Source: a virus
Length of the DNA stretch: 64,000 bases
IMG/VR virus record: IMGVR_UViG_3300047409_000574
Coordinates: 1 to 64,000 of that record
Strand: one strand, 5' to 3'
This document shows positions 50,599 to 64,000 of this stretch, one piece after another; within the stretch, counting starts at the first letter, position 1; each line of letters begins with the position of its first letter. The position numbers were made by a program, and so were the translations under genes. A model generated the notes under the pieces. That model was given only the letters and a program-made list of their open reading frames with translations. It had not been told where the DNA came from and did not search any database.

Positions 50599-50846
50599 AC
50601 GGCGTCGATACACGAGACAACCGCGACCCGGAGTTGATCGGGGTGGAGCTTCACCGTGCACGGGAGCAGCATCCCGACGGCGGGCTGGCGGCGCTGGCCG
50701 ACAAGGCGAACCTGAACGTGCCGGACTTCGGCACACCGGAGGCGCATGAGTACCGGGTGCGCGGCAACGGCCAGGTGGCCGCTGTCGGCGAGTTCTTTGT
50801 GCGCGGCCTAGACTCCGGGCGTGACGCAGCCGCGCCCGAGCACTAG
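50595..50846 (+). CDS. Hypothetical protein
   Basis: ATGA overlap; 83 aa. Confidence 0.5.
   Translation: MNGVDTRDNRDPELIGVELHRAREQHPDGGLAALADKANLNVPDFGTPEAHEYRVRGNGQVAAVGEFFVRGLDSGRDAAAPEH

Positions 50847-64000: not shown

Follow-up and report, generated by a model that had tools for sequence, protein, structure and literature searches.

We analysed the giant open reading frame (ORF) that follows the portal gene in the IMG/VR virus record IMGVR_UViG_3300047409_000574. The window is the whole stretch of DNA studied, that is positions 1-64000 (64,000 nucleotides, nt) of this 126,255-bp record, and positions past its end are given in contig numbering, which continues that of the window. The record is classed as linear and as 91% complete (CheckV), with ~9% of the genome missing, and the phage is a myovirus of roughly 126 kb with a high GC content. 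Within the window the giant ORF is a single plus-strand frame (50821..63999) of 4393 amino acids (aa) with an open 3' end. An earlier note on this DNA had described one uninterrupted frame of at least 4390 aa and had proposed extending the contig to find its stop; this stop lies at contig position 66654, 2654 nt beyond the window end, with no earlier in-frame stop, so that the frame described is confirmed and the full product has 5277 aa (~577 kDa). The further statement that the frame had been missed by the ORF track is not true of public gene calls, as the same ORF is found in the protein database as a protein of 5245 aa (P0002), begun at codon 33. We place the start at GTG 50821, where the N-terminus of the giant aligns with the N-termini of its relatives P0003, P0005 and P0006; an in-frame stop immediately upstream of the ORF ends at 50811, and no evident Shine-Dalgarno sequence was seen upstream of this GTG.

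The DNA has a GC content of 67%, at which an open frame by itself says little. Codon bias along the length of the giant frame confirmed that it is genuine coding sequence: in all eight 1.5-kb blocks between 50821 and 62820, GC at the first, second and third codon position was 0.67-0.72, 0.44-0.53 and 0.77-0.94, respectively (0.69, 0.48 and 0.87 for the whole ORF). Because the third position (GC3) is biased against the second in each block, and because many of the modules have homologues, the frame is coding and not due to chance. The idea that it is an accidental opening in GC-rich DNA, or a chimeric assembly that fused genes in frame, could be built on the general abundance of long open frames at this GC content, on the presence of a 1987-aa frame on the opposite strand and on the fact that the record is a metagenomic assembly. 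We consider this idea close to refuted and extremely improbable, as the GC3 bias extends over all blocks, homologues of the anchor, the core and many modules follow one another in an identical order in independent contigs, the anchor-core-cargo plan recurs in independent giants of 2920, 2978 and 5944 aa, and the junction motif described below was found again in other genes of the same genome. The antisense frame (57991..63954, minus strand), which lies within the giant ORF, is in our view no gene but the shadow of GC3-rich coding sequence.

The product consists of an N-terminal anchor that is split by an intein, a 2H phosphoesterase, a zincin and then about a dozen cargo modules, at least three of which have an ADP-ribosyltransferase (ART) fold (Table 1). 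We are highly confident that this effector protein belongs to the polyvalent proteins as defined by Iyer et al. 2017, a class of phage and plasmid proteins that comprise 2-15 domains, frequently exceed 2000 aa and have ART, metallopeptidase (MPTase), 2H and LPD domains (PMC5512222). Like these proteins, the giant combines many unrelated effector domains in one phage polypeptide, in this case the 2H, zincin, ART-PolyVal and phrog_2319 modules, two further ART-fold modules and an LPD1-like stretch, all encoded by a single myovirus ORF. Of the hallmark domains, ART-PolyVal and 2H score above their cut-offs and the HExxH...E residues of the metallopeptidase are conserved, while LPD1 stays below its cut-off. 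Moreover, the giant is encoded among packaging genes, with terminase and portal upstream, and its domain content is mosaic between relatives. Unlike the proteins of Iyer et al., it has ~18 recognisable units in 5277 aa, an anchor that contains no detectable PF04233 MuF domain and is split by an intein, a fixed and genome-specific motif at the junctions between modules, and two copies of an ART-fold family for which there is no Pfam model. The class as such is already known; new are the size, the anchor missed by MuF models, the intein, the two copies of the unnamed ART-fold family and, above all, the genome-specific motif.

Table 1. Features of the giant ORF and of the adjoining portal gene (positions in window numbering, continued along the contig; aa positions refer to the giant protein).
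Feature	Position (nt)	Strand	Basis or remark
Portal gene, 751 aa	48012..50267	+	phrog_10963, E 3.9e-26; directly 5' of giant ORF
Giant ORF, in-window part	50821..64000	+	ORF listing, codon-position GC
N-extein of anchor, aa 1-195	50821..51405	+	Ala/Val/Gly-rich N-terminus, three long helices, start of Cys motif
Intein, aa 196-470 (275 aa)	51406..52230	+	First residue Cys, ends VIVAN, +1 Cys
C-extein of anchor, aa 471-560	52231..52500	+	Invariant alignment columns
2H phosphoesterase, aa ~581-717	52561..52971	+	Two H-x-T motifs, HVTL and HITL
Zincin core (metallopeptidase-type), aa 928-1320	53602..54780	+	HEAIH at aa 1157 (nt 54289-54303)
Beta-rich region (earlier 'SH3/KOW-like'), aa ~1320-1700	54778..55920	+	Common to P0003, P0004, P0006, P0029
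DUF3626-like module, aa 1760-2009 (Pfam match aa 1793-1860)	56098..56847	+	23.9 bits, cut-off 27
S2, aa 2010-2167, candidate ART-like (lead only)	56848..57321	+	ESM-Atlas look-alikes
S3, aa 2168-2514, ART-fold domain, large family without Pfam model	57322..58362	+	Fold search
S4, aa 2515-2815, candidate ART-like (weak lead)	58363..59265	+	ESM-Atlas ART-PolyVal at 0.85
S5a, aa 2816-2925, ~105-aa domain	59266..59595	+	60-81% identity with other polyvalent proteins
ART-PolyVal, aa 2935-3051	59623..59973	+	PF18760 32.7 bits, cut-off 31.2 (module alone)
S7, aa 3250-3538, paralogue of S3	60568..61434	+	hhalign against S3 profile
phrog_2319 module (earlier 'Zn-ribbon/OB'), aa 3605-3996	61633..62808	+	phrog_2319, E 5e-66
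LPD1-like stretch, HEMGH motif, in S9 (aa 4007-4465)	63781..63903	+	Pfam LPD1 20.9 bits
S10-S13, aa 4466-5277	contig 64216-66651, wholly past window	+	No family match
Junction motif, first copy	53599..53613	+	15-nt site
Junction motif starts, in window	53599, 56845, 57319, 58360, 59263, 60022, 60517, 60565, 61432, 62836	+	
Junction motif starts, past window	contig 64213, 64585, 65074, 65893	+	

The most important finding was that a short motif, G-[E/D]-K-G-[D/G], is present in 14 copies between the modules of the giant. A looser form of the pattern matched 14 times, whereas 300 shuffles gave 1.1 matches on average and never more than 5. The strict motif was also found 8 times in the other 130 ORFs (28,434 aa), where 0.27 copies were expected and 200 shuffles yielded 2 at most, and all 8 copies fall in three large multi-domain proteins (encoded at 69907-71886, 73887-75917 and 110375-117538). 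The consensus of the 22 sites reads [A/G]-[L/G/A/S]-G-[E15/D7]-K-G-[D13/G9]-x-[P/G], and the codons used at these sites vary synonymously, which points to selection on the peptide. The relatives of the giant lack GEKGD. At homologous module ends, P0004 has 10 matches to the loose pattern, mostly GEKSGG (0.7 expected), and P0003 has five copies of EK[ASL]DPG (0.6 expected), and regularly spaced motifs were found in other giants of the family as well (RR-DPGT x7, VV-AHFE x5-6, KTA[AS] x10-12, SLGE-PG and L-HPRGRGGxW x3-4). Of 128 ends of homology blocks, 109 lie at most 15 aa from a motif, whereas 11.6% would do so at random. We encountered no description of such junction motifs in the literature searched, which for Iyer et al. 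2017 means the main text; there the word 'linker' has 0 occurrences.

We tentatively read the junction motifs as processing sites, a proposal that in our judgement falls just short of being evenly balanced. Its main rival, which we think unlikely, is that the same polyvalent protein is packaged and works uncut, as a full-length product of ~548 kDa in the virion, like the N4 virion RNA polymerase, and that the motifs are flexible linkers or footprints of cassette shuffling. Several observations favour such linkers, the first two of which also weigh against processing: the flanks of the motif are rich in Gly and in Pro (12.5% Pro versus 5.7%), like plain linkers; the motif does not occur in the major capsid protein (MCP), the portal or the tail proteins, and it is therefore not a general head-maturation site; and no head protease was found, the S78, S77, ClpP and S49 families being undetected in the genome. 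In addition, the modules are mosaic between relatives, so that the junctions are also recombination points, and no processing takes place when the N4 virion RNA polymerase, ArdC and TraC1 are transferred, despite their MPTase domain (PMC5512222). The clear module boundary at aa 2925, which has no motif, the origin of 103 of the 109 motif-coincident block ends in one module family, and the room for a head protease in the missing part of the genome belong on the same side of the balance. However, a linker need not hold five fixed residues at 22 sites at which the codons vary synonymously, nor need it switch its form genome-wide, with GEKGD in four proteins here and GEKSGG at the homologous junctions of P0004; and, as regards shuffling, the 15 nt of identity are short for homologous recombination and are not conserved at the DNA level. 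As no head protease was recognised, the zincins within the chain are the only recognisable peptidases, which fits the autoproteolysis that was proposed for the polyvalent class. Two other explanations of the motif were discarded: a collagen-like repeat, since there are just two G-x-y triplets per site, and 2A-like ribosome skipping, which is a eukaryotic mechanism.

Some further observations concern the motif-bearing proteins of this genome. The ORF at contig 110375-117538 encodes 2387 aa with two PG_binding_1 domains, five strict and three or four looser motifs, and an 'LHPRGRGGEW' element directly before the first junction motif; it may be another packaged and processed protein. The ORF at contig 69907-71886 encodes a 659-aa P-loop ATPase with terminase/primase-like PHROG matches and a LAGLIDADG-type intein; a junction motif (aa 35) and a GEKSG variant (aa 586) were seen in this protein. 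The ORF at contig 73887-75917 encodes a 676-aa protein with a weak GNAT match and two junction motifs. The 672-aa product of contig 78450-80468, which contains a Zeta-toxin domain (73.6 bits), shows the looser motif GDKAG close to the C-terminus. The element '(E/W)(F/W)L-HPRGRGG-x-W' recurs 3-4 times per protein in relatives (L019 and L025), and the giant itself has one diverged copy of the L-HPRGRGG element ('RWERRFPKGSEHAGEFMP') after the 2H module, at window ~53000-53100. Finally, P0156 contains six copies of 'DESKH.RH..GDERGGEF'.

The anchor is characterised by an invariant signature, ...W.L...HT.xC...WPW.VL...P..H..C.C.L, the C-extein part of which reads C...WPW.VL...HP..H.GC.C.L. The boundaries of the intein are at Cys196 and between Asn470 and Cys471: five relatives are without the 275 aa, with the gap closed exactly, and in a sixth (P0007) this anchor site is occupied by a homologous intein, which bears out the intein that had been read from the DNA. 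The scores of the intein hidden Markov models (HMMs) stayed below their cut-offs (Pfam Intein_splicing 23.7 bits, cut-off 35.8; TIGR01445 21.1 bits, cut-off 24.5). Homologous inteins are present in genes annotated as MuF or head-morphogenesis genes, and no relevant paper on inteins in phage MuF genes was among the literature matches listed. The anchor is common to 12 shorter proteins with differing cargo (NUDIX, ADP-ribosylating exotoxin, 2H and PASTA) and to four long proteins (P0003, 2920 aa; P0004, 2978 aa; P0029, 2576 aa; P0032, 5944 aa). An anchor-bearing ORF was also found in 25 viral contigs, with sizes from 308 aa (the anchor alone) to at least 3458 aa. Of the 20 related loci tested, a count that leaves out five near-duplicate loci, 19 have a phrog_10963 portal as the frame directly before the anchor gene, and the remaining one has a collagen-like fibre there. 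In the present genome this arrangement is as the earlier note had it, with the giant frame downstream of the portal; the 553-nt gap between portal stop and giant start (50268-50820) holds two overlapping open frames (50438-50749 and 50448-50846).

The anchor had also been called a MuF domain, and this claim survives only in part. By sequence the anchor is not a member of the MuF family: the Pfam MuF model (PF04233) did not match the giant, the intein-free relatives or the six-frame translated genome (E<=0.1-1), PHROG scans of the giant and of the intein-free relatives placed no MuF or head-morphogenesis family on the anchor, tblastn of the intein-free anchor of P0012 against 50,697 phage records gave no match, and hhalign of the anchor profile with a protein that has a true Pfam MuF domain gave a probability of 0.1%. 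The sole PHROG head match (phrog_15127) falls on the intein, and the MuF-looking matches in phage databases lie mainly over it as well. Structure comparisons pointed weakly towards MuF. An AlphaFold2 (AF2) model of a member of the anchor family (pLDDT 76.5) gave, in a BFVD fold search, 17 proteins named MuF, minor capsid, head-morphogenesis or minor structural among the top 50 (best E 0.019, probability 0.95), all of them at E>=0.019 and TM 0.2-0.4. With the same model, a Foldseek search of PDB returned nothing at E<=0.001 and VIA-align returned generic helical bundles only. The sequence results and the E values of the BFVD matches, all above 0.001, count against membership of the MuF family. 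The profile of the anchor family matched, among PDB sequences, only the ART cargo of relatives and nothing on the anchor itself, and no other MuF gene was detected in the genome by the six-frame PF04233 search. What the anchor has in common with MuF/SPP1 gp7 proteins is the position of its gene directly after the portal, the variable C-terminal cargo (2H, NUDIX and ARTs), homologous inteins, weak MuF or minor capsid fold matches and, by eye, a W...H...G..F...P...CxC pattern that parallels the true MuF motif. In view of the portal adjacency and the weak fold matches, the anchor is probably MuF-like in role.

An anchor with variable C-terminal cargo, which in relatives includes an ADP-ribosylating exotoxin and NUDIX, is also reminiscent of the MuF polymorphic toxins described by Jamet et al. 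2017 (PMC5576092), and the giant might be such a toxin, released at lysis or borne by the particle and harming competitors. We regard this as very unlikely, since the giant lies in the packaging cluster of a ~126-kb myovirus, after terminase and portal, and since many of its modules, such as 2H and the Tpt1-like ART fold, belong to the counter-defence type rather than to the classic toxins that kill. Furthermore, the next ORF begins 188 nt past the giant stop, and no immunity-like small gene was seen there, although none was specifically examined. Both this explanation and that of an artefact are much less likely than the uncut chain with linkers.

Several of the non-ART modules could be assigned with more or less confidence. 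The 2H module scores above the cut-off of two Pfam models, 2_5_RNA_ligase2 (PF13563; 41.9 bits, cut-off 27) and LigT_PEase (PF02834; 32.8 bits, cut-off 23.3), and also matches phrog_2659 and phrog_14859, so the 2H phosphoesterase named in the earlier note can be accepted. The zincin that had been placed behind it is supported as well, by its motif. This core, positioned directly after the anchor region, is shared with nine proteins (including P0003, P0004, P0029 and P0032), and its HEAIH is followed ~20 aa downstream by EEALTEE; the combination HExxH...EEALxEE is invariant in 10 of the 10 family members that span the site, the eleventh row of the alignment being a fragment that does not reach it. 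It weighs against the cleavage reading that the zincin is recognised by this motif only, with no Pfam or PDB sequence match for aa 728-2009. The beta-rich region next to it gave no Pfam match, and internal repeats in aa 1300-1700 were not significant (best score 41, shuffled maximum 49). For the DUF3626-like module a Pfam match is indeed present, but below the cut-off in the giant; the homologous regions of P0003 and P0070 score 26.8 and 29.6 bits, respectively.

Further downstream, S5a is shared with, for instance, P0019 (Pfam MuF and 2H), P0022 (ART-PolyVal) and P0024 (LPD1 and methylases), and a local jackhmmer search recovered 39 of these domains in 32 proteins. The stand-alone homologues of the phrog_2319 module are proteins of ~380 aa that are annotated as hypothetical and occur in many large phages. 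The end of this module (giant aa 3916-3998) is paralogous (39% identity) to the C-terminal half of a 202-aa ORF at window 45861-46469. Of the LPD1-type zincin suggested before, the HEMGH motif, which is the second zincin-type motif of the giant, is present, but the LPD1 score is below the cut-off of 27; the stretch also matches phrog_4529 ('minor head protein and DNA pilot', E 0.0042). The module in which it lies, S9, runs beyond the window end. For the last 812 aa (S10-S13) no Pfam, NCBIfam or PDB match was obtained; S11 is shared with P0004 at 65% identity, and S13 has a GNAT-like look, by eye only. More generally, phmmer searches of PDB with aa 728-2009, 3069-4465 and 4466-5277 gave nothing below E 0.4, tblastn of the conserved core (aa 728-2009) against phage records gave no match, and NCBIfam models added nothing new for the giant and its neighbours.

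Another important finding was that two modules of the giant, S3 and S7, are copies of an unnamed family with an ART fold, which modelling supports. A library search with aa 2010-2815 (806 aa) yielded 752 hits at E<=1e-3, and nearly all of the rows listed match S3. The members of the family are stand-alone proteins of ~330 aa or parts of other giants, and six stand-alone members gave no Pfam match. With an AF2 model of a family member (pLDDT 89.8), 39 of the top 50 VIA-align matches were named ARTs, PARPs, Tpt1, DarT or ADP-ribosylating toxins; the best were 9ld3_A (Z 7.5, rmsd 2.6, 86 aa) and the Tpt1 7kw9_A (Z 6.7), both with middling Z, and the list also contains a cyanophage pre-ejectosome protein. 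A Foldseek search of PDB with the model returned nothing at E<=0.001, and the family profile gave no match to PDB sequences. S7 matches the S3 profile in hhalign with a probability of 96.5% (E 9e-10; 97.8% locally), its jackhmmer search converges on the same 145 proteins, and both modules keep all polar invariant residues of the family (H, R, S-x-T, R and E-x-R), which may be catalytic. Among the module profiles this S3-S7 pair was the only significant one: S3 and ART-PolyVal reached 33%, and S2, S4, S6, S10-S13 and the DUF3626-like module all stayed below 20% against each other. S12 was tried as a relative of S3 and rejected, as it shares just the short PPVLYH motif.

The ART-PolyVal module scores above the cut-off when taken alone and reaches 30.4 bits within the whole-protein scan. 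Of the six further ART-like domains originally proposed, ART-PolyVal, S3 and S7 are thus well supported, S2 and S4 are leads and one is left without assignment. For S2, the nearest ESM-Atlas clusters (0.93, with 177-186 shared features) have ART-PolyVal in 20-22% of their members; the S4 family is small (P0004, P0031, P0063 and P0070). Neither module had a Pfam match, and hhalign to the ART modules gave less than 20%. As ART domains, S2 and S4 are leads only, taken from language-model look-alikes, and this counts against our overall reading. In other S3-bearing giants 5-6 ART-PolyVal stretches were found, plus matches to PARP, Tpt1, Arr, NUDIX and GNAT, and giants with multiple ARTs are therefore a recurring theme; P0066 (4167 aa) and P0057 (3238 aa), for instance, have 5-6 ART-PolyVal stretches each, together with a recurring 'KTA[AS]' motif.

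In the remainder of the genome, the sheath, tube, tape measure and baseplate genes are found at 1-20 kb and an endolysin at 21.5 kb, followed at 22-42 kb by RecT, an exonuclease, a DnaC-like loader, SSB and a Ku-like protein. A HerA/FtsK-like ATPase and the Ku-like protein (window 38387-40339 and 40591-41577) lie 5' of the terminase, the large subunit of which is encoded at 42950-44764. The head genes are split: the MCP gene (124370-125698) is distant from the terminase-portal-giant group at 43-67 kb and, together with an unassigned 497-aa ORF 5' of it, adjoins the tail genes across the contig ends. This 497-aa ORF, a candidate head protease, gave no Pfam, NCBIfam or PDB match. Two genes for GroES-like co-chaperonins lie downstream of the giant (contig 68955-69296 and 76280-76651). 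A search of viral contigs for close relatives with the portal as query gave none.

We found no cultured or annotated phage with the anchor or the core by tblastn against phage records. The size of the giant is extreme but not unique, as the relative P0032, at 5944 aa, combines this anchor with two copies of the zincin. Other giant proteins are known from Microbacterium phages (cluster EK and Burro), which are likewise high-GC, actinobacterial-type phages in which one gene takes a large share of the genome; no Microbacterium phage was among the matches listed in tblastn searches with aa 1-1000, 728-2009 and 2010-4393. The Microbacterium products exceed 4400 aa and were called, in 2020, the largest known for an actinobacteriophage; they are virion-associated and 'likely processed', Burro gp27 (>4400 aa) being connected to a ~250 kDa virion band that is 'presumably gp27 or a processed part of it' (PMC7302621). 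They were reported to have 'few informative conserved domains' (PMC7302621), whereas the giant described here is larger and its domains are largely assignable. For polyvalent proteins, phi24B gp47 (2811 aa) was found in virions by proteomics (bioRxiv 10.64898/2026.04.10.717836), and fusions to MuF or portal proteins were described and autoproteolysis by the MPTase was proposed (PMC5512222).

A comparison can also be made with the ejection proteins of T4, phiKZ and SPN3US, many of which are packaged in the head, processed by a head protease at a short motif and ejected afterwards. Proteases of the T4/phiKZ type cut after Glu, and several junction motifs of the giant's family contain Glu. In SPN3US, packaged ejection proteins are cut at a short motif (gp245 sites) that recurs within one substrate (PMC10052503). 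The systems differ in several respects: neither S77 (T4 gp21-type) nor any other known head protease could be detected in the present genome, the MCP and the portal are without the motif, and the cuts in T4, phiKZ and SPN3US mostly remove N-terminal propeptides and do not split a polyprotein into enzymes.

Our overall reading, a polyvalent giant that is held by its anchor, processed at its junctions and injected in pieces, seems to us reasonably likely, albeit that packaging, cleavage and injection into the host are steps that we infer, which weakens the case for it. The giant would be made together with the head genes, its intein would splice out and thereby restore the anchor, and the anchor would probably dock the chain at the portal or in the procapsid, by analogy with MuF/SPP1 gp7-type proteins. 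The junction motifs would then, quite possibly, be the sites at which the chain is divided into some 15 pieces between 16 and 1082 aa long, either by the conserved zincin of the giant itself or by an unrecognised head protease. Among the fragments predicted in this way are those of 653, 1082, 158, 347, 301, 253, 165, 289, 468, 459, 124, 163, 273 and 251 aa. The pieces would exit the capsid together with the DNA and affect the host at an early stage; the 2H module could attack cyclic or 2'-5' oligonucleotide signals or RNA ends, and the ART modules could use NAD+ to modify host proteins or nucleic acids. A bolder version, about which we are rather doubtful, is a self-processing polyprotein of a dsDNA phage, in which the zincin cuts the giant and the three other motif-bearing proteins and frees ~15 enzymes in the capsid or in the host, with different lineages co-evolving their motif (GEKSGG, EKxDPG, RR-DPGT, VV-AHFE and L-HPRGRGGxW) with the protease.

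The findings have several consequences for the study of large phages. They define a portal-linked anchor family that is missed by current MuF models, which matters for the annotation of metagenomic phages, and they add an ART-fold family that numbers hundreds of members and lacks a Pfam model, of which two copies with intact conserved residues are present here. They also indicate that phage proteins of more than 5000 aa recur in metagenomes (5277 and 5944 aa), exceeding the products of over 4400 aa reported from actinobacteriophages in 2020. Polyvalent proteins are thought to be the first weapons delivered into the cell, and the packaging and cutting of their chains have only been predicted since 2017. 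The motif at 14 junctions of the giant and at 8 sites in three other proteins predicts where cleavage should occur and makes the processing hypothesis directly testable. If the self-processing version is true, polyvalent proteins would have a readable cleavage code, comparable to that of the polyproteins of RNA viruses.

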